The notes: generated by a model not told the origin, from the letters alone. DNA of 12,091 bases from Candidatus Rokuibacteriota bacterium (GCA_016184305.1 JACPCX010000091.1:1-12091); one strand, 5' to 3'; shown: positions 736 to 9,129, numbered from the stretch's first letter. A program made the numbers and translations.

Positions 736-1206
736 TCAGCGCGCGCGGAGGCCCGCGATCACATCGAGGACGCGCAGGATCTCGGCGCCGTCCCGCACCA
801 TGTGACGGTCGCCCGCCTGGCCCCAGCGGAGCGCACCGTCGCGGTCCACGATGAAGGTCGAGCGCCAGGCGACATTCCGCGCCTCGTCGAGCACGCCGTA
901 CGCGCGGATGACCGTCCGGTGGATGTCACTCAGCAGCGCGAAGGGGAAGCGGCGCGCCTCGGCGTAGGCGGCGTGCGAGAAGGTGCTGTCCGCGCTGATG
1001 CCGAGGAAGACGGCGCCGCGCTCCCGAAGCCGAGCGTCGACCTTGACCAGGTCGGTGATCTCCGGCGTTCAGATGCTCCCCCAGTCGAAGCAGTAGAAGA
1101 CGAGCACCACGTCCTGCCCGCGGAGGGCGGAGAGGGTGATGTCCGCCCCCGCCGTGGACGGCAGCGTGAAGTCGGGCGCCGGCTGACCGAAGCGCAACCC
1201 CGTCAT
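736..1206 (-). CDS. AhpC/TSA-family peroxiredoxin-like protein, probable selenoprotein (Sec46, in-frame TGA at 1069-1071), 156 aa
   Basis: Manual translation through the TGA: MTGLRFGQPAPDFTLPSTAGADITLSALRGQDVVLVFYCFDWGSI-U-TPEITDLVKVDARLRERGAVFLGISADSTFSHAAYAEARRFPFALLSDIHRTVIRAYGVLDEARNVAWRSTFIVDRDGALRWGQAGDRHMVRDGAEILRVLDVIAGLRAR*. Prx hallmarks lie on both sides of the TGA (GQPAPDFTL, GISAD, FPFALLSD, RSTFIVD). The TGA sits at the peroxidatic Cys position. The ATG overlaps the upstream stop (ATGA, 1203-1206). Confidence 0.88.
1024..1068 (-). promoter_or_regulatory. Putative bacterial SECIS element of the Sec-peroxiredoxin
   Basis: mRNA reads UGA-ACGCCGGAGAUCAC-CGACCU-GGUCA-AGGUCG-ACGCUCGGCUUCGG. 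A perfect 6-bp stem (hairpin at 1038-1054) closes a 5-nt loop starting with GG, 20 nt after the UGA. A lower stem CCGGAG/CUUCGG is possible. Confidence 0.75.
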
Positions 1207-2291
1207 GAGGGGATCGCCTCGTCCAGGAGGGGAAAGGCGCTGGTCGCGTGCGGGAGGACCACCGGCGTCGCCGGGTTCAGGTAGGAGCGGTCGAGCTGCG
1301 CCAGCCGCTCCACGCCCAGGAGCCCGAGGCAGATGCGGATCTCCTCCTCGAGCAGCTCCAGGGCGCGCACGAGACCCGCTTGCCCCGCGGCCGCCAGCCC
1401 GACGCAGGCGAGCCGCCCGATCCCGACCGCGGCTGCCCCCAGGGCGACGGCCTTGACGATGTCGGTGCCCCGCAGGAACCCGCCGTCCACGATGATCGTG
1501 GCCCGGCCGCCCACGGCCGCCACCACCTCCGGGAGCGCCTCGGTGGTGCCGCGGCCGTGATCGAGCTGTCGCCCCCCGTGGTTCGACACGTAGAGGCCGT
1601 CCACTCCGAGGTCGCAGGCCAGCGCCGCGTCCTCCGCGGTCGCGATGCCCTTCAGGATCAGGGGAATCGCGTGGGTGTCCTTGAAACGCTTGACGTGGTC
1701 CCACGTGAGACCGGCCTGGTAGTCGAAGCCGGTGGCGCGCACGCGCCAGGGCTTCACGAAGCGCCGGGCCAGATCGCGCTCGCGACGGCCGTAGACGGCG
1801 GTGTCCACCGTGAGGCAGAAGGCGGCGTAGCCGTGCTCCACCGCCCGTCTGACATGATCATCCACCCAGCCGACGTCGCCGCGCACGTAGAGCTGGAACA
1901 TGCGGAAGCCGTCGGCCGCGGCCGCGACGGCCTCGAGCCCCGGGTTGCAGACCGAGGACAGCATGAGCGGGATGCCGAACTCGGCGGCCGCCTTCGCGGC
2001 GGTGGCCCCGCCGCCCGGGGTGAAGGTCTCGATGGAGCCGACGGGGGCGACCAGGACCGGCAGGCGAACCGCCCGCCCGAACAGCGCCGAGGTGCAGTCG
2101 ATGCGCGAGACATCCCGCAGGACCCGCGGGCGAAAAGCGATGGAGTCCAGGGCCTGGCGGTTGCGCCGGAGGGTGGTCTCGGTCTCGGCGCCGCCGATGA
2201 GGTAATCCCAGGGGCCCGGCTCGAGGTTCTGGCGCGCGGCCTTGACGATCTCGTGAAGCGTCTGGAACCGCTCCTCCAGGTTGGACGTCAT
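1203..2291 (-). CDS. FMN-dependent alpha-hydroxy acid oxidase/dehydrogenase (glycolate oxidase / L-lactate dehydrogenase family), 362 aa
   Basis: Starts MTSNLEERFQTLHEIV with an ATGA overlap at 2288-2291. Family motifs: WDYLIGGAETETT, RPRVLRDVS, FQLYV, LTVDT, LILKGI, catalytic SNHGGRQLD, DGGxxRGTD. Confidence 0.93.
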   Translation of the reverse strand: MTSNLEERFQTLHEIVKAARQNLEPGPWDYLIGGAETETTLRRNRQALDSIAFRPRVLRDVSRIDCTSALFGRAVRLPVLVAPVGSIETFTPGGGATAAKAAAEFGIPLMLSSVCNPGLEAVAAAADGFRMFQLYVRGDVGWVDDHVRRAVEHGYAAFCLTVDTAVYGRRERDLARRFVKPWRVRATGFDYQAGLTWDHVKRFKDTHAIPLILKGIATAEDAALACDLGVDGLYVSNHGGRQLDHGRGTTEALPEVVAAVGGRATIIVDGGFLRGTDIVKAVALGAAAVGIGRLACVGLAAAGQAGLVRALELLEEEIRICLGLLGVERLAQLDRSYLNPATPVVLPHATSAFPLLDEAIPS

Positions 2292-2929
2292 CGGCCGCGA
2301 AGCTTGCGCGCCGCCTCGGCCCGCATCGTCTGCATGGCGCGCGTCTCCTGATCGGAGTACCGCTCCTCCTGCCAGGGGTCGGCCTGCATGTGATAGCCGT
2401 TGACCTCCCAGAAGCCCGGCGGGTTCACGTCCAGGAACTCGAAGCCGCGCAGCCACTTGGCGCTCTTCCAGAAGTAGAGCTTCGGCACCACGAGCCTGAG
2501 CGGGCCCCCGTGCTCGGACTCGAGGTCGCGCCCGTCGTGCTTGAGGGCCAGCAGCACGTCGTCCTGCACCAGCGCCTCGAGCGGCAGGTTGGTCGTGTAG
2601 TCGGGGTCGGCGTGGATCATCACGGCGCGGGCCCCGGGCTTGAGGCGGACGCGCTTCATGATCTCGCGGATGTGGACGCCCTCGAAGCGGTTGTCCAGCC
2701 GCGACCACCGCGTGACGCAGTGAATGTCGCAGGCCACCTCGGTCCGCGGCAGGGCGAGAAACTCCTCCCAGGTGAAGCGCACCTCTTCCTCGACCAGCCC
2801 GAAGCAGCGAAAGCTCCATCGCGCGGGATCGAAGCGCGGCGTGAGGCCGTAGGTGAGCACCGGCCACTTGTCGGTCAGCACCTGGCCCGGCGGAACGCGG
2901 TGCGCGAGATCGGGCGGCGTCTCCTTCAT
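2288..2929 (-). CDS. Sulfite oxidase-like molybdopterin-dependent oxidoreductase (MsrP/YedY-related, no obvious Tat signal)
   Basis: Motifs RVPPGQ, DIHCVTRWS (Mo-ligating Cys), YTTNLPL, EHGGPLRLVVPKLYFWKSAKWL, PGFWEVNGYH. Start chosen at MKETPP because AGGAG precedes it. An alternative in-frame ATG lies at 3031. Confidence 0.9.
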   Translation of the reverse strand: MKETPPDLAHRVPPGQVLTDKWPVLTYGLTPRFDPARWSFRCFGLVEEEVRFTWEEFLALPRTEVACDIHCVTRWSRLDNRFEGVHIREIMKRVRLKPGARAVMIHADPDYTTNLPLEALVQDDVLLALKHDGRDLESEHGGPLRLVVPKLYFWKSAKWLRGFEFLDVNPPGFWEVNGYHMQADPWQEERYSDQETRAMQTMRAEAARKLRGR

Positions 2930-3041
2930 CCGGATCGCTCCTCTGGCTGTCATCGTGGGGCTCCGCGGGGTCTTGGCGCGCGACATGACGAGCCAGACCG
3001 CGAAGCGGCCGACGGCGTCCTTCAGCCCCATGCGCCAGCGC

Positions 3042-3101: not shown

Positions 3102-4103
3102 CTACAGACTCCATTTCACGCCGCAGCCGCGGCACGGCTCGGGCGGCGCCTCGGTCTGGATGGCGCCCCGGAACTCGAGATAGCGCGGGCCCCACCAGAT
3201 CTCCGCGAGCGACTGACGGAAGAGATTGCCGAGGACGATGCCGTCGTAATGTGCCGTGATCCACGGAGCGATGCAGCAGGGCAGCACGTTCCCGTGCACG
3301 GTCACGTACACGAGGCTCCAGGGACGGCGGCAGGCGCTCCAGGGCCGGTCCTCCTGGGCCGGGTTGAGGCTCACCTCGGGCGCCACCGCTCCGGACGCGG
3401 AGAAGACGATCCCGGCGGCCCGGGCGGCCGCCGCCGCGTGCTGGATCAGCGCCTCCTCACGCTCGACGAGCCGTCCGTGGAGCGACTGCTCCGCCGTGGC
3501 GAGGCCGAGGCCGTTGTAGACCAGCCGCTGGAGGTTCACGCCCTCGGCACCGACCCGCGAGGCCAGCGGCACGAGCCCGGCGATCTCATCGATATTGGCC
3601 TTGAGCGCGGTGAACCAGAGGGACACGCGCGGGCGCGCCGTCCCGGCCTCGCGCTTCGCCGCCGCGAGCCCGCTCACGTTGCCCACGACCTTGTCGAAGG
3701 CGTCCACGCCCCGCACCTTGTCGTAGGTCGCGGCGGTCGCGGCATCCAGCGACACTCGGATCTCGTCCAGTCCGCTCTCGATGAGCGCCGTGCGGAGCCG
3801 GGGCGAGAGCGTGATCGCGTTGGAGTTGAAGAGCACGGTGGCGCCGCGGCCCTTGAGGTGGGCGATCATGCGCGGCAGGGCCCGGTTCAGGAGCGGCTCG
3901 CCGATGCCGTGGAGCAGGACGCGCTCGAGGACCGGGAACTGGTCCACGACGCGGCGGAACTCCTCCCAGCCGAGATCCTTCTGCGGCTCGCGCCCCCCGA
4001 AGGTGAGGATGCACGTCTGGCAGAGCGAGTTGCAGCGGCTCGTGGTCTCCAGATACAGCGAGCGCGGCAGCGGAGGCTTCACGGCCAGCGCCTCGCCGCT
4101 CAT
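3102..4103 (-). CDS. Radical SAM protein with C-terminal SPASM/Twitch-type auxiliary Fe-S domain, 333 aa
   Basis: Starts MSGEALAVKPP with an ATGA overlap at 4100-4103. CxxxCxxC = CNSLCQTC, plus HGIGEPLL and VSLDA. C-terminal CRRPW...VHGNVLPCC...LGNL...PEPCRGC. TAG stop. Confidence 0.92.
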   Translation of the reverse strand: MSGEALAVKPPLPRSLYLETTSRCNSLCQTCILTFGGREPQKDLGWEEFRRVVDQFPVLERVLLHGIGEPLLNRALPRMIAHLKGRGATVLFNSNAITLSPRLRTALIESGLDEIRVSLDAATAATYDKVRGVDAFDKVVGNVSGLAAAKREAGTARPRVSLWFTALKANIDEIAGLVPLASRVGAEGVNLQRLVYNGLGLATAEQSLHGRLVEREEALIQHAAAAARAAGIVFSASGAVAPEVSLNPAQEDRPWSACRRPWSLVYVTVHGNVLPCCIAPWITAHYDGIVLGNLFRQSLAEIWWGPRYLEFRGAIQTEAPPEPCRGCGVKWSL

Positions 4104-5359
4104 GCCGAGCGCTCCGCGAGCGCGTCGAGCGCCCGCCGGCGGTACAGCCACCAGCCAGCGCCCGCGGCGAGCGGTGCCGCCTCCACGGCGCGGGCCCACC
4201 AGGGAATGGCCCACGGGTCCTGGAGGAAGAAGGTGTAGGCCATGGCCAGGGTCCCGGTGAAGGCGATCCACGGCAGCGACGGCACGACGGCCAGGACCGG
4301 GACGAGCCACAGCGCGTACCAGGGGAAGAGGTTCGGCGACAGCAGCAGGACGCCGCCGATGACGGGCAGCGCGCGCGCCGGCAGCGGAGCCTCGCGCCGG
4401 CACAACCCCATCCAGAGCACCCACACGGCGAGCGCCGCCGCCTCGAGCCCGGGAAAGTGGACCACCGAGCGGAGCAGACCCGGATTGAAGTACTCCTCCT
4501 CGAGATAGCGGGGCAGCGAACCCAGCACGGAGAGTCCGCCGGACGCCACCGGCGCGTACCCGAGAACCAGCACCGCGCCGAAGCCGCACAGCACCGGGAG
4601 CGTGCCCGGCCCGAGCAGGAGTGGGAGCAGCGCGGCCGGGTAGAGCTTCAGCAGTGTCCCCGCCGCCAGCAGGCCGCCTGCCAGAGCGTGCCGCCCGGCC
4701 ACCGAGGCCCACAGGGCCCCGACGACCGCCGGCACCACCATCGCGTCCAGATGCCCGCTTCCCCAACCCTCGACCAGCACCAGAGGATTCCAGGCGTAAA
4801 TCACTGCCCGTACGGGAAAAATACGAAGGGCCCTCAGCAGCCCAATCAAAACCACGAGACCGATCAGCTCGAAGAGCCCGAGGGCCGCCTTCATCGCCAG
4901 GACACTGTCGGGCCTGACGGCGTAGACGGCGCGAAAGAAGGCCTCGGCGCCCGGGGGATAGATGGTGTGCCACGCCGGGTGGTTCAGATGCGGATAGATG
5001 GCCGCATCCCGCAGATGCGACAGCGCCGGCGCCTCCGGCGGATGCAGGTACGGGCTGATCCCCGCAACGGCGACCCGCGCGTCCCAGACGTACCGGTACG
5101 CATCGGTCGACAGCGTCGGCACGGCTGGCAGCAGCGCCAGGCGGGCACCGCCGGCCACGATGAGGACAAGAAGCATTCCCCTGCCCCCGCGCGACTCGTG
5201 GAGCGCCCACGCGCCCAGCGCGTAGCAGGCAAACGCGCCCGCGAAGAGGAGCAGGAAGGTCACCGGCGCCTGGGCGAGGTTGGGCACGCGGGCCAGCCCC
5301 GCACAGGCAGCCACGAGACCGGCGCCGGCCAGGGCCGCTGCCTGCCTCTTCGCGCTCAC
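4100..5359 (-). CDS. Polytopic membrane glycosyltransferase, GT87/DUF2029-like (GT-C fold), about 419 aa
   Basis: GTG start overlaps the GT2 stop (GTGA, 5356-5359). Motifs LSTDAYRYVWD, ISPYLHPP, TIYPP, YAWNPL, SGHLD, KLYP and FPWYALW, with many TM segments. Confidence 0.8.
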   Translation of the reverse strand: MSAKRQAAALAGAGLVAACAGLARVPNLAQAPVTFLLLFAGAFACYALGAWALHESRGGRGMLLVLIVAGGARLALLPAVPTLSTDAYRYVWDARVAVAGISPYLHPPEAPALSHLRDAAIYPHLNHPAWHTIYPPGAEAFFRAVYAVRPDSVLAMKAALGLFELIGLVVLIGLLRALRIFPVRAVIYAWNPLVLVEGWGSGHLDAMVVPAVVGALWASVAGRHALAGGLLAAGTLLKLYPAALLPLLLGPGTLPVLCGFGAVLVLGYAPVASGGLSVLGSLPRYLEEEYFNPGLLRSVVHFPGLEAAALAVWVLWMGLCRREAPLPARALPVIGGVLLLSPNLFPWYALWLVPVLAVVPSLPWIAFTGTLAMAYTFFLQDPWAIPWWARAVEAAPLAAGAGWWLYRRRALDALAERSA

Positions 5360-6858: not shown

Positions 6859-7620
6859 ATGAGTGATGACCGGAAACTGGCGATGTTCATCGACTTCGAG
6901 AACATCGTCCGAGGCGTGAAGGAGGCCCAGTACAAGGGGTTCGAGATCAAGCTGGTGCTCGAGCGGCTCGTCGAGAAGGGCAAGATCATGGTGAAGCGGG
7001 CGTATGCCGACTGGAACCGCTACGCCGAGTACAAGCGCCCCTTCCACGAGCACGCCATCGAGCTGATCGACGTGCCCCAGAGCCGCTACAGCGGCAAGAA
7101 CTCGGCGGACATCCGGATGGTGGTGGACGCCATGGACCTGGCGTACGCCAAGCAGCACGTGGACACCTTCGCGCTGGTGTCGGGGGACTCGGACTTCTCC
7201 CCGCTCGTGTCCAAGCTCAGGGAGAACGATCGCTACGTGATCGGCCTCGGCGTCAAGTCCTCATCGTCGGAGCTCCTGGTCGGGAACTGCGACGAGTTCA
7301 TCTTCTACGAGGACCTGATCCGCGACTCCAAGAAGACCACGGCCCTGCGCGGGCTACCGGAGAAGAAGGCCGAGGCGTTCGCCCAGCTCATCGAGGCAGT
7401 CCTGGCGCTGCAGCGCGAGAACAAGGACACGCTCTGGGGCTCCATGGTCAAGCAGACCATGATCCGCAAGAACCCCGCGTTCAACGAAAGCTACTACGGC
7501 TACTCGACCTTCTCGAAGCTGCTGGAGGAGGCCGCCAAGCAGAAGATCGTCACGCTCGAGAAAGACGCGAAGAGCGGGACGTACATCATCACCTCCATCG
7601 AGGAGGGGCGCGCCGCTTGA
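6859..7620 (+). CDS. NYN domain (LabA/DUF88, PIN-like RNase) protein with C-terminal OST-HTH/LOTUS domain, 253 aa
   Basis: Acidic motifs FIDFEN, KRAYADW, KNSADIRMVVDA, SGDSDFSPLV. C-terminal PAFNESYYGYSTFSKLLE is LOTUS-like. Confidence 0.92.
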   Translation: MSDDRKLAMFIDFENIVRGVKEAQYKGFEIKLVLERLVEKGKIMVKRAYADWNRYAEYKRPFHEHAIELIDVPQSRYSGKNSADIRMVVDAMDLAYAKQHVDTFALVSGDSDFSPLVSKLRENDRYVIGLGVKSSSSELLVGNCDEFIFYEDLIRDSKKTTALRGLPEKKAEAFAQLIEAVLALQRENKDTLWGSMVKQTMIRKNPAFNESYYGYSTFSKLLEEAAKQKIVTLEKDAKSGTYIITSIEEGRAA

Positions 7621-7648: not shown

Positions 7649-8017
7649 TCAGCGCCGGGTGATGATGGCGATGCGGCCCCGGTCGCTCACGAAGGCCGTG
7701 GCGACCCAGCTGGTCGCGCTCACGAGGAGCGCCCCGCCCACCGCGGACCAGAAGCCGGCCACGTAGAAGCCGTTGACCACGACCGCCACGAACCAGAAGC
7801 ACAGCCCGTTGAGCACCAGCAGGAAGAGGCCCAGCGTGAACAGCGTGATGGGGAGCGTGAGGACCAGCAGGACGGGGCGGATGACGGCGTTGACGATCCC
7901 CAGCAGGAGGCCCGCCCCGAGGGCCGGGACGAGGCCATCCACCTCGATCCCGGGGATCACCGAGCCGGCGAGCACGATCGCCAGCGTGTTCATGACCACC
8001 CTCAGCAGGAATCCCAT
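7649..8017 (-). CDS. 4-TM phage holin-like membrane protein (YvlD/DUF360, holin superfamily IV), 122 aa
   Basis: Signature GIVNAVIRPVLLVLTLPITLFTLGLFLLVLNG and GFWSAVGGALLVS. No phage genes nearby. Confidence 0.88.
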   Translation of the reverse strand: MGFLLRVVMNTLAIVLAGSVIPGIEVDGLVPALGAGLLLGIVNAVIRPVLLVLTLPITLFTLGLFLLVLNGLCFWFVAVVVNGFYVAGFWSAVGGALLVSATSWVATAFVSDRGRIAIITRR

Positions 8018-8153: not shown

Positions 8154-8762
8154 GTGACTCGCATCCTGACCCTCACCGCCATGACCGTGGCGCTGTGGGC
8201 CGCCGCGTGCTCGGGGCAGCCGGATCCGCTGGCGGCCGGCGCGCTCACGATGGACCCGCGCCTCATCCGGGGCGCGGCCGCGGCCCCCGTCACTATCGTG
8301 GAGTTCTCCGACTACCAGTGACCCTACTGCAAGCGCGCCCAGCAGGTGCTGGGCCAGATCCTGGCGGAGTTCCCCGGCAAGGTCCGCCTCGTCTTCAAGG
8401 ACTTCCCGCTGGAGTTCCATGCAGGCGCCCGGCCCGCCGCCGAGGCGGCCCGCTGCGCCGCCCAGTCGGGGCGCTACTGGGAGTACCACGACCTGCTGTT
8501 CCTGGCGCAGCCCGAGTTCTCCCGCGAGGATCTCATCCGCTACGCCGCGCGCCTCGGACTCAACCGGGAGGCCTTCACCGCGTGCCTCGACAGCGGGCGG
8601 TTCAGGAAGGACGTCAACGCCGATCTCGCCGAGGGCGGGGCGCTTGGCGTGCGCGGGACGCCCACGTTCTTCATCAACGGCCGGCGCCTCGTGGGCGCCC
8701 ACCCCATCGAGACGTTCCGGGAAGCCGTGCAGGACGCGCTCGAAGATGGCGGTCGCAAGTAG
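8154..8762 (+). CDS. DsbA-family thioredoxin-fold oxidoreductase, probable lipoprotein and selenoprotein (Sec56, in-frame TGA at 8319-8321; UxxC = UPYC), 202 aa
   Basis: GAAAGGGA RBS, then GTG at 8154. Translation MTRILTLTAMTVALWAAAC-SGQPDPLAAGALTMDPRLIRGAAAAPVTIVEFSDYQ-U-PYCKRAQQV runs in frame into the listed 8346..8762 ORF (VRLVFKDFPL, AAEAARCA, cis-Pro GTPTFFING). EFSDYQ-x-PYC is the DsbA CxxC site. Confidence 0.9.
8322..8354 (+). promoter_or_regulatory. Putative bacterial SECIS element of the Sec-DsbA
   Basis: mRNA reads UGA-CCCUACUGCAAGCGC-GCCCAGC-AGGU-GCUGGGC. A perfect 7-bp stem (hairpin at 8337-8354) closes the loop AGGU, 22 nt after the UGA. Confidence 0.78.
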
Positions 8763-8796
8763 CCGCCTCGGCAGCCCCGACCCAGGGAGAGCCCGC

Positions 8797-9129
8797 ATGC
8801 CCGCAGCAGCAGTGAGCCTGTTCGTCAACGCAGCCGACGTCCCCTGGACGGAGCGCCGCCCGGGAGTATTCTGGAAGGTACTCTGGGAGGACCCGGACGG
8901 CCTCCACAAGGCCATTCTCATGCGCTACGCGCCCGGGGCGGCGATCCCCCGTCACCGCCACGTCGGCGACGAGCAGATCTTCGTCCTGGAAGGAGCCGTC
9001 GCCGATGACACCGGCGTCTGCACCGCAGGGAACTATGCCCGGCGTCCCCCGGGCTGCGAGCACACGATCGTGAGCGAGACCGGGGCCGTGGTCTTCGCCG
9101 TCACATCAGGCCCCACGGAGGTAATCTGA
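8797..9129 (+). CDS. Cupin domain protein (ChrR-like), 110 aa
   Basis: GGGAGAG RBS. Cupin metal-site motifs PGAAIPRHRH..DEQIFVLEG and PPGCEHT. Confidence 0.85.
   Translation: MPAAAVSLFVNAADVPWTERRPGVFWKVLWEDPDGLHKAILMRYAPGAAIPRHRHVGDEQIFVLEGAVADDTGVCTAGNYARRPPGCEHTIVSETGAVVFAVTSGPTEVI

Follow-up and report, generated by a model that had tools for sequence, protein, structure and literature searches.

Is the TGA codon that breaks a peroxiredoxin-like reading frame in a Candidatus Rokuibacteriota bacterium a stop codon, or is it decoded as selenocysteine (Sec)? The frame lies at 736..1206 on the minus strand of a 12,091-nt stretch of DNA (GCA_016184305.1, JACPCX010000091.1:1-12091), and this whole stretch is called the window below. 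The original prediction, which was made from the sequence alone, held that the UGA is recoded as Sec at the peroxidatic position of a peroxiredoxin (Prx) and that standard gene callers would split or miss the gene. The proposal of recoding was supported in this study by the conservation of the TGA codon, by homologues with Cys at the same position, by a covarying hairpin after the codon and by a Sec-type selD gene in the same genome. We consider that the gene is a Sec-encoding AhpC/TSA gene with a peroxiredoxin-type redox role, and we put the probability of this combined statement at roughly 0.85. The first part of the statement is the firmer one: from comparison of the sequences we infer that Sec is inserted at this codon, and the gene is almost certainly a genuine Sec-encoding gene.

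Results

Reading frame and in-frame TGA codon

The gene starts with the ATG codon at 1204..1206 on the minus strand, which overlaps the TGA stop codon of the upstream gene (1205-1203) in the tetranucleotide ATGA (1206-1203). The orthologous proteins start at the same residue, with the N-terminus M/V/L-T-G-L-R-F-G-Q-P-A-P-D-F. After 45 sense codons ending in ...FYCFDWGSI, codon 46 is TGA (1071-1069, that is 1069..1071). Translation past this codon gives 110 more sense codons and then a TGA at 738-736 (736..738), which is the true stop codon, so that the gene is composed of 156 codons and the stop. All of these coordinates and counts had been given correctly in the original prediction. With table 11 the frame is broken at 1069, and the open reading frame (ORF) that is listed is 1069..1704 on the minus strand. 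In the orthologues, TAA/TAG or TGA closes the frame within a few codons of the 736..738 stop, or the protein extends a few residues beyond it.

We searched 41 related genomes, the window's own included, for this gene at E <= 1e-20. There were 53 matches listed at this threshold, and 48 of them had the in-frame TGA. Near-full-length matches with 60-99% identity had TGA in 17 of 17 cases; one of them, in genome G014, had two TGA codons, the second of which is its stop. The five TGA-free matches were two partial pieces, one in G001, the front of which reads N, and one in G016, and three paralogues with about 40% identity, two in G023 and one in G030. A second route through named public genomes added 20 usable orthologues. 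The titles of these sources were Candidatus Rokubacteria/Rokuibacteriota and Methylomirabilota/Methylomirabilia, with single metagenome-assembled genomes (MAGs) of Nitrospinota and Binatia. After removal of three duplicates found by both routes, 34 distinct orthologue DNAs with 60-90% protein identity remained. TGA was present in the codon-46 column in all 34 of them (33 of 33 without L038, which comes from the unpublished genome G012), and the more distant homologues L078 and L080 have Cys in this column. This is the pattern, Cys or TGA at codon 46, that was expected if the codon encodes Sec.

Sequence on both sides of the TGA is conserved as protein. Invariant columns are found from A10 to R145, and pairwise differences at codon positions 1/2/3 after the TGA are 0.18/0.16/0.45, which is a coding signature. 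The codon at 1069-1071 is covered by Logan contigs from one groundwater DNA run (2020) and two soil DNA runs (2016 and 2019). Strain variants were listed at 1059, 1052 and 1044, and no variant was listed at 1069-1071. Thus, TGC or TGT at codon 46, which had been named as an observation that would speak against Sec, was seen neither in these contigs nor in close relatives. The gene is 89% identical to the orthologue in the congener G003, and it is undamaged after the TGA.

Two kinds of related sequences were found besides these orthologues. L050/L079 come from G016:C32 and from a DeepCast Rokuibacteriota MAG; their frame breaks off after about residue 56 and is taken up again in a different one around residue 103. 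L076 has a 4-nt gap at residue 125. These damaged copies could be pseudogenes or assembly indels, and they were left out of the alignments. In addition, at least three paralogous AhpC/TSA-like groups of the same order also have TGA at the peroxidatic column. None of these groups has Pro at -7, and the local motifs of the TGA-bearing paralogues (L044-L055 and others) vary, with ...LDWTPGUTKE... and ...FTPVUT... as two examples. It seems that an entire set of Sec-Prx-like genes is present in this lineage.

Hairpin downstream of the TGA codon

A hairpin of the bacterial selenocysteine insertion sequence (bSECIS) type was found by folding and covariation at 1038..1054 on the minus strand, beginning 14 nt after the UGA. 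Its stem in the window is 6 bp long, with the 5' arm at 1054-1049 and the 3' arm at 1043-1038, and its loop is GGUCA (1048-1044). Most relatives have seven pairs and a three-base loop. RNAalifold run on 17 gap-free aligned orthologues predicted exactly the 1054-1038 helix. Pairing for this helix was 97.5% of 119 cells, and three of the seven pairs had compensatory changes. The covariation score was 0.244 versus 0.141 +/- 0.021 in shuffles, and it was reached in 0 of 500 shuffles, a count that is not a probability. In a control, sliding the partner by 1-3 columns gave 15-47% pairing. Among 31 distinct 34-nt segments, six pairs were standard and the first loop base was G without exception. The third pair was A-U in 17 segments, G-U in 9 and G-C in 5, and never A.C; the seventh was G-C in 15, C-G in 8 and mismatched in 8.

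The energy of the 17-nt hairpin is -8.2 kcal/mol (z -3.74). As given in Fig. 2 of PMC13188914, the bSECIS consensus has a loop of 3-9 nt with G in the first two loop positions, a stem of 4-16 bp, a UGA-to-loop distance of 16-37 nt and a minimum free energy of <= -7.5 kcal/mol. The hairpin lies within all four constraints, with a UGA-to-loop distance of 20-21 nt (20 in the window). The SECIS-like hairpin noticed in the original prediction is therefore upheld, both by these constraints and by the compensatory changes.

Protein family and fold

That 736..1206 is a single gene for an AhpC/TSA (peroxiredoxin-fold) selenoprotein is seen from its translation, the Pfam family PF00578, an AlphaFold2 model and the 34 distinct orthologues. 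The read-through product matched AhpC-TSA (PF00578) with an E-value of 4.3e-36 and 124 bits (cut-off 26) over residues 7-128, a range that spans the TGA, and it matched Redoxin at 4.1e-18. When the product was compared with solved peroxiredoxins by phmmer, codon 46 was aligned with the peroxidatic Cys of 2ywn, 5ijt and 1qmv. The best of these matches was the Sulfolobus Prx-like protein 2ywn (9.1e-21). The AlphaFold2 model, for which 37 aligned orthologue rows were the input, had a mean predicted local distance difference test score of 92.4 and a predicted template modelling (TM) score of 0.89. Its helix 47-62 begins directly after residue 46. Foldseek placed the model among peroxiredoxins such as Bcp4, Prx1/2, tryparedoxin peroxidases and AhpE, with TM-scores of 0.81-0.93 on the query; for solved peroxiredoxins the range was 0.85-0.93. 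It had been claimed that the Prx fold continues past the TGA and that the TGA falls on the peroxidatic Cys. The AhpC-TSA domain on both sides of the codon and the Foldseek result bear out the former, and the alignments to the three solved structures agree with the latter. No NCBIfam peroxiredoxin equivalog was matched at its cut-off; the best was the selenoperoxiredoxin PrxU (NF040737), with 70.5 bits versus a cut-off of 270.

Active site residues

The original prediction had placed the TGA in the motif F(Y/F)PxxxT/SxxCxxE. This was only partly right, since the Pro is replaced by Cys39 and the Thr/Ser by Gly43. Codon 39 (TGC, 1090..1092, minus strand) is aligned to the Pro of 2ywn and human Prx2, and Cys is present there, at -7 to Sec, in 34 of 34 orthologues (TGC in 30 and TGT in 4). 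In solved peroxiredoxins the side chain of this Pro packs against the peroxidatic residue. Codon 43 (1078..1080, minus strand) is aligned to the canonical catalytic Thr of 2ywn and Prx2 at -3, and its Gly is invariant in all 37 alignment rows. The position at -2 is variable (S, G, R, T or N). The catalytic Arg of the canonical PxxxTxxC/U site is retained: Arg115 (862..864, minus strand), aligned with the catalytic Arg in the AYRGLF stretch of Prx2, is also invariant in 37 of 37 rows. A second Arg, R138, is aligned with the Arg of the GRS stretch of Prx2. The sequence after Sec is U46-T-P-E49, in which E49 is invariant. There is no Cys or Sec at +3 of Sec46, and no thioredoxin-type CxxC/UxxC motif is found in the gene. 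L078 and L080, the nearest Cys-type homologues outside the phylum, retain both Pro and Thr.

Representation in public databases

In a collection of 5.8 billion proteins, 1264 hits were obtained, and the following refers to the best 120 of them. The hits bear names such as AhpC, peroxiredoxin and redoxin domain-containing protein. There were 111 entries of only 89-108 amino acids, which cover 55-69% of the query, and this is the splitting or missing of the gene by gene callers that had been anticipated. Three fragments that were examined start at internal codons after the TGA. The other nine entries cover 96-99% of the query and have Trp at the Sec column in eight cases and Leu in one (P0013). 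The Leu may reflect a true substitution, or it may be an artefact. Several of the Trp entries run on through the terminal TGA, so the Trp entries appear to be table-4 calls on short contigs.

Genes for selenocysteine synthesis and insertion

The assembly that contains the window (G000) comprises 239 contigs with a total of 3.2 Mb, and its completeness is rated at 88.8%. Three congeners have 4.7-5.4 Mb. In G000, SelD was found with 345.7 bits (cut-off 125) at G000:C18:28407-29345 on the minus strand (L009), and its gene has one in-frame TGA. Translation places the U in the N-terminal glycine-rich segment, which we take to be where Sec-type SelD proteins carry Sec. Among related genomes, SelA was present in 27 of the 31 that were searched and in all three congeners. 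In five genomes examined further, SelB was above its cut-off in all five, the three congeners included, and tRNA-Sec was above the Rfam cut-off in four, two of the three congeners included. G001 has a truncated tRNA-Sec match at the very start of a contig with selA and selB. The selC, selA and selB genes were each time confined to about 5 kb, as in G003:C2, with tRNA-Sec at 43285-43378, selA at 45043-46137 and selB at 46195-48078. SelD is a listed selenoprotein family in Table 1 of PMC1794560.

Neighboring genes

The Prx gene is the last of three genes on the minus strand that are joined by 4-nt ATGA overlaps. The first (2288-3031) encodes a molybdopterin oxidoreductase domain protein by Pfam, and the second (1203..2291) encodes a member of the flavin mononucleotide (FMN)-dependent alpha-hydroxy-acid dehydrogenase/oxidase family (Pfam FMN_dh, 1.1e-105), with the 4-nt overlap at the Prx start. 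Among 39 orthologue loci, the FMN_dh gene and the Prx gene are adjacent only in the window and in two loci of the same genus (L027 and L077). The idea that the pair is a conserved operon was therefore rejected beyond the genus.

A second likely hidden selenoprotein is encoded in the window at 8154-8762 on the plus strand. It is a DsbA-like thioredoxin-fold protein of 202 amino acids with a lipoprotein-like N-terminus, TGA at codon 56 and the motif U-P-Y-C. Table 11 gives an ORF only after the TGA (8346-8762), and the matches of this ORF to Thioredoxin_4 and DSBA begin at profile positions 37 and 86, respectively. A search of 21 related genomes gave genes with the TGA from each of the three congeners and from several family members, beside TGA-free homologues. 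Pfam also gave matches in the window to a radical SAM/SPASM protein (3102-5210, minus), an NYN-domain protein (6859-7620, plus), a holin-family membrane protein with four transmembrane segments (7649-8017, minus) and a ChrR-type cupin domain (8419-9129, plus).

Discussion

The results indicate that codon 46 of the AhpC/TSA gene is read as Sec. If decoding follows the usual route in bacteria, the hairpin, with G as its first loop base, would be recognised by SelB in complex with Sec-tRNA(Sec).

Several observations weigh against this conclusion or against the peroxiredoxin-type role. For the 42-nt and 76-nt contexts of the hairpin, the folding energy did not surpass that of shuffles (z -0.15 and +0.08), the DNA being G+C-rich. 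Thermodynamics alone was dropped as proof of the hairpin, since only the 17-nt hairpin stands out and the longer stretches do not; the case for the hairpin thus rests on conservation and covariation. The covariation in turn is in part confounded by coding constraint and by the common descent of the sequences. One RNA-library run gave a single contig of 199 nt at 1175-1373 with 10 differences, and no sign of transcription was obtained from it. Family models did not reveal SelA (PF03841), SelB (PF09107 and TIGR00475) or tRNA-Sec (RF01852) in G000, aragorn found no tRNA-Sec among 25 tRNAs in all, and the SelA, SelB and tRNA-Sec sequences of G003 used as queries found nothing in G000. Finally, both the canonical catalytic Pro and the canonical Thr are absent, which makes peroxidase activity less certain than for a canonical Prx.

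What would the Sec protein do? Because Sec46 occupies the site of the peroxidatic Cys, hydroperoxide chemistry is the most likely function, and the alignments suggest that the protein probably performs thiol-dependent reduction of hydroperoxides. In the model, residue 46 is at the N-terminus of helix alpha-2, the usual site of the peroxidatic Cys. The selenolate of Sec46 would attack the hydroperoxide and be converted to selenenic acid, which would then be reduced by a thiol. Cys39 might be the resolving residue, a tentative assignment that we hold at somewhat less than even odds. In that case, Cys39 would close an intramolecular Se-S bond, and a thioredoxin-type partner would later reduce the bond. 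The order of the three genes in the window fits a role in clearing peroxide made by oxidases. The molybdopterin-binding and FMN-dependent oxidoreductases whose genes are coupled to the Sec-Prx gene may both be makers of peroxide.

The main rival reading, a different function for the same selenoprotein, has to be weighed here. The AhpC/TSA-fold protein may be genuine in its Sec and yet no peroxidase, but a selenol/thiol-disulfide oxidoreductase in which Cys39 and Sec46 form a redox couple that acts on a protein or a small molecule. The Pro and Thr that define peroxide activation are missing in every orthologue, where Cys39 and Gly43 stand instead. The motif PxxxTxxU is described in PMC13188914 as highly conserved and crucial for Sec-Prx catalysis, and the same paper lists several "Prx-like" selenoproteins of unknown function. 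The low PrxU score and the lack of any peroxiredoxin equivalog at cut-off also agree with this explanation. On the other hand, Sec is located exactly at the peroxidatic column, Arg115 is invariant and R138 is aligned with the GRS Arg of Prx2. The fold matches those of peroxiredoxins with TM-scores of up to 0.93, and the CxxC/UxxC motif of thioredoxin-type oxidoreductases is absent. Within the genus, moreover, the gene is translationally coupled to that of an FMN-dependent dehydrogenase/oxidase, which follows a molybdopterin oxidoreductase gene. For these reasons we regard a function other than peroxidase as unlikely, and we retain the peroxiredoxin-type role.

The lack of selA, selB and tRNA-Sec in G000 raises the question of whether the gene is a relic. 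If selC, selA and selB had been lost, the UGA would terminate translation and only a 45-residue peptide would be made. Of the Sec machinery that the original prediction proposed to look for, selD was present and itself encodes Sec, whereas the other three genes were not found in this incomplete assembly and are clustered in congeners. Because these genes are clustered in about 5 kb and G000 is smaller than its congeners, the absence of a single contig would explain why all three are missing. More of the genome is probably missing from G000 than the rated completeness would imply, and the number of tRNAs found in it is only 25. In a comparison of synteny with G003, the first ~5.5 kb of a 19.9-kb stretch matched the starts of G000 contigs (C36 and C146), and nothing was matched around the cluster. 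G000 keeps an intact Sec-type selD and an intact DsbA-like gene with TGA, and the close similarity of the Prx gene to the G003 orthologue, without damage after the TGA, is not what a relic would show. Loss of Sec decoding in G000 is thus very improbable. Aragorn also called a 96-nt "tRNA-???" with the four-base anticodon catg at G000:C36 complement 33411-33506 (L019). It was rejected as tRNA-Sec, because it had no Rfam match at E <= 1, and it may be a false call.

There is next to no chance that TGA is an ordinary sense codon for Trp or Gly (NCBI tables 4 or 25): eight public full-length calls do have Trp at the column, but they run past the true C-terminus through the second TGA and are thereby recognisable as artefacts of code 4 on short contigs, TGA is the stop codon of the gene itself and of the two genes upstream, congeners have tRNA-Sec above the Rfam cut-off beside selA and selB, and the column is the catalytic Cys in homologues. 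A nonsense mutation, a pseudogene or an error of sequencing or assembly is effectively refuted and can be excluded for practical purposes, despite the broken table 11 frame and the damaged copies at L050/L079 and L076, because the TGA stands in the same column in all 34 distinct orthologues from independent assemblies, conservation and the coding signature extend over both sides of it, and the three DNA runs agree at the site.

Sec-containing peroxiredoxins are not new. The first known Sec-Prx was PrxU of Eubacterium acidaminophilum (Sohling et al. 2001, as cited in PMC13188914). The Prx selenoprotein family had 12 bacterial members in Zhang et al. 2006 (PMC1794560), and Prx and a number of Prx-like families are regularly listed in the tables of bacterial selenoproteomes in PMC1794560 and PMC13188914. 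The present protein resembles the Sec-Prx family (PF00578, TxxU) in its AhpC/TSA domain, in Sec in place of the peroxidatic Cys, in the hairpin within the gene after the UGA and in the existence of Cys homologues. It differs from that family in that PxxxTxxU is replaced around Cys39 and Gly43 in all orthologues and in its short length of 156 amino acids, and its score is far below the equivalog cut-off of PrxU. In size (about 150-160 amino acids) and in the order of secondary structures it resembles the Sulfolobus Prx-like/Bcp proteins (2ywn and 3hjp) and AhpE of M. tuberculosis (1xvw, 4x0x and 5c04), with TM-scores of 0.85 for 3hjp and 0.84 for 5c04. Unlike the present protein, all of these use Cys, and their identity to it is 25-34%; 2ywn and human Prx2 also keep the canonical Pro and Thr.

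The protein shares with other Prx-like selenoproteins a fold that is of the thioredoxin type or related to AhpC/TSA; most of those were predicted by bioinformatics, and their function is uncharacterised. Its motif, C-x6-U-T-P-E, has neither Cys nor Ser at +3 and no Cys at -3, and the protein does not belong to the UxxC/UxxU Prx-like oxidoreductases, to the UxxS AhpC/TSA family or to Prx-SUH. It had no match to NF045827 (NCBIfam) at E <= 0.01. As for the lineage, 63 selenoprotein genes were predicted in one Methylomirabilota MAG (Deng et al., as cited in PMC13188914), and the present gene resembles that selenoproteome in belonging to the same phylum, with many TGA-recoded redox genes. The terms peroxiredoxin, Prx, AhpC and Methylomirabil do not occur in the main text of the BSepDB paper (PMC13326102). 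Among the papers listed for selenocysteine in Rokubacteria, none deals with this subject by its title.

The kind of protein is thus already known, and the surprise is modest. What is new here is the active site, in which Pro is replaced by an invariant Cys and Thr by Gly. It is conceivable, although we think it rather doubtful, that this subfamily of Rokubacteria/Methylomirabilota is a mechanistically distinct class of peroxiredoxins. Sec, which would already be ionised and strongly nucleophilic, might make the activating Thr and the shielding Pro dispensable, so that Thr could change to Gly43. Cys39, placed in the freed Pro site, would then resolve the selenenic acid as an Se-S bridge within the active-site loop (C-x6-U), and the local unfolding on which Cys-based 2-Cys peroxiredoxins depend would not be required. 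If this were true, the class would amount to an experiment of nature on the advantage that an enzyme gains from Sec in place of Cys.

In conclusion, the gene is a further piece of evidence for Sec decoding in this lineage. Since nearly all the public entries are headless or are read through with Trp, the antioxidant and selenium-dependent capacity of a phylum that is widespread in soil and groundwater is under-counted. The Cys and Gly around Sec provide a concrete, testable case of whether Sec relaxes the active-site needs of a thiol peroxidase.

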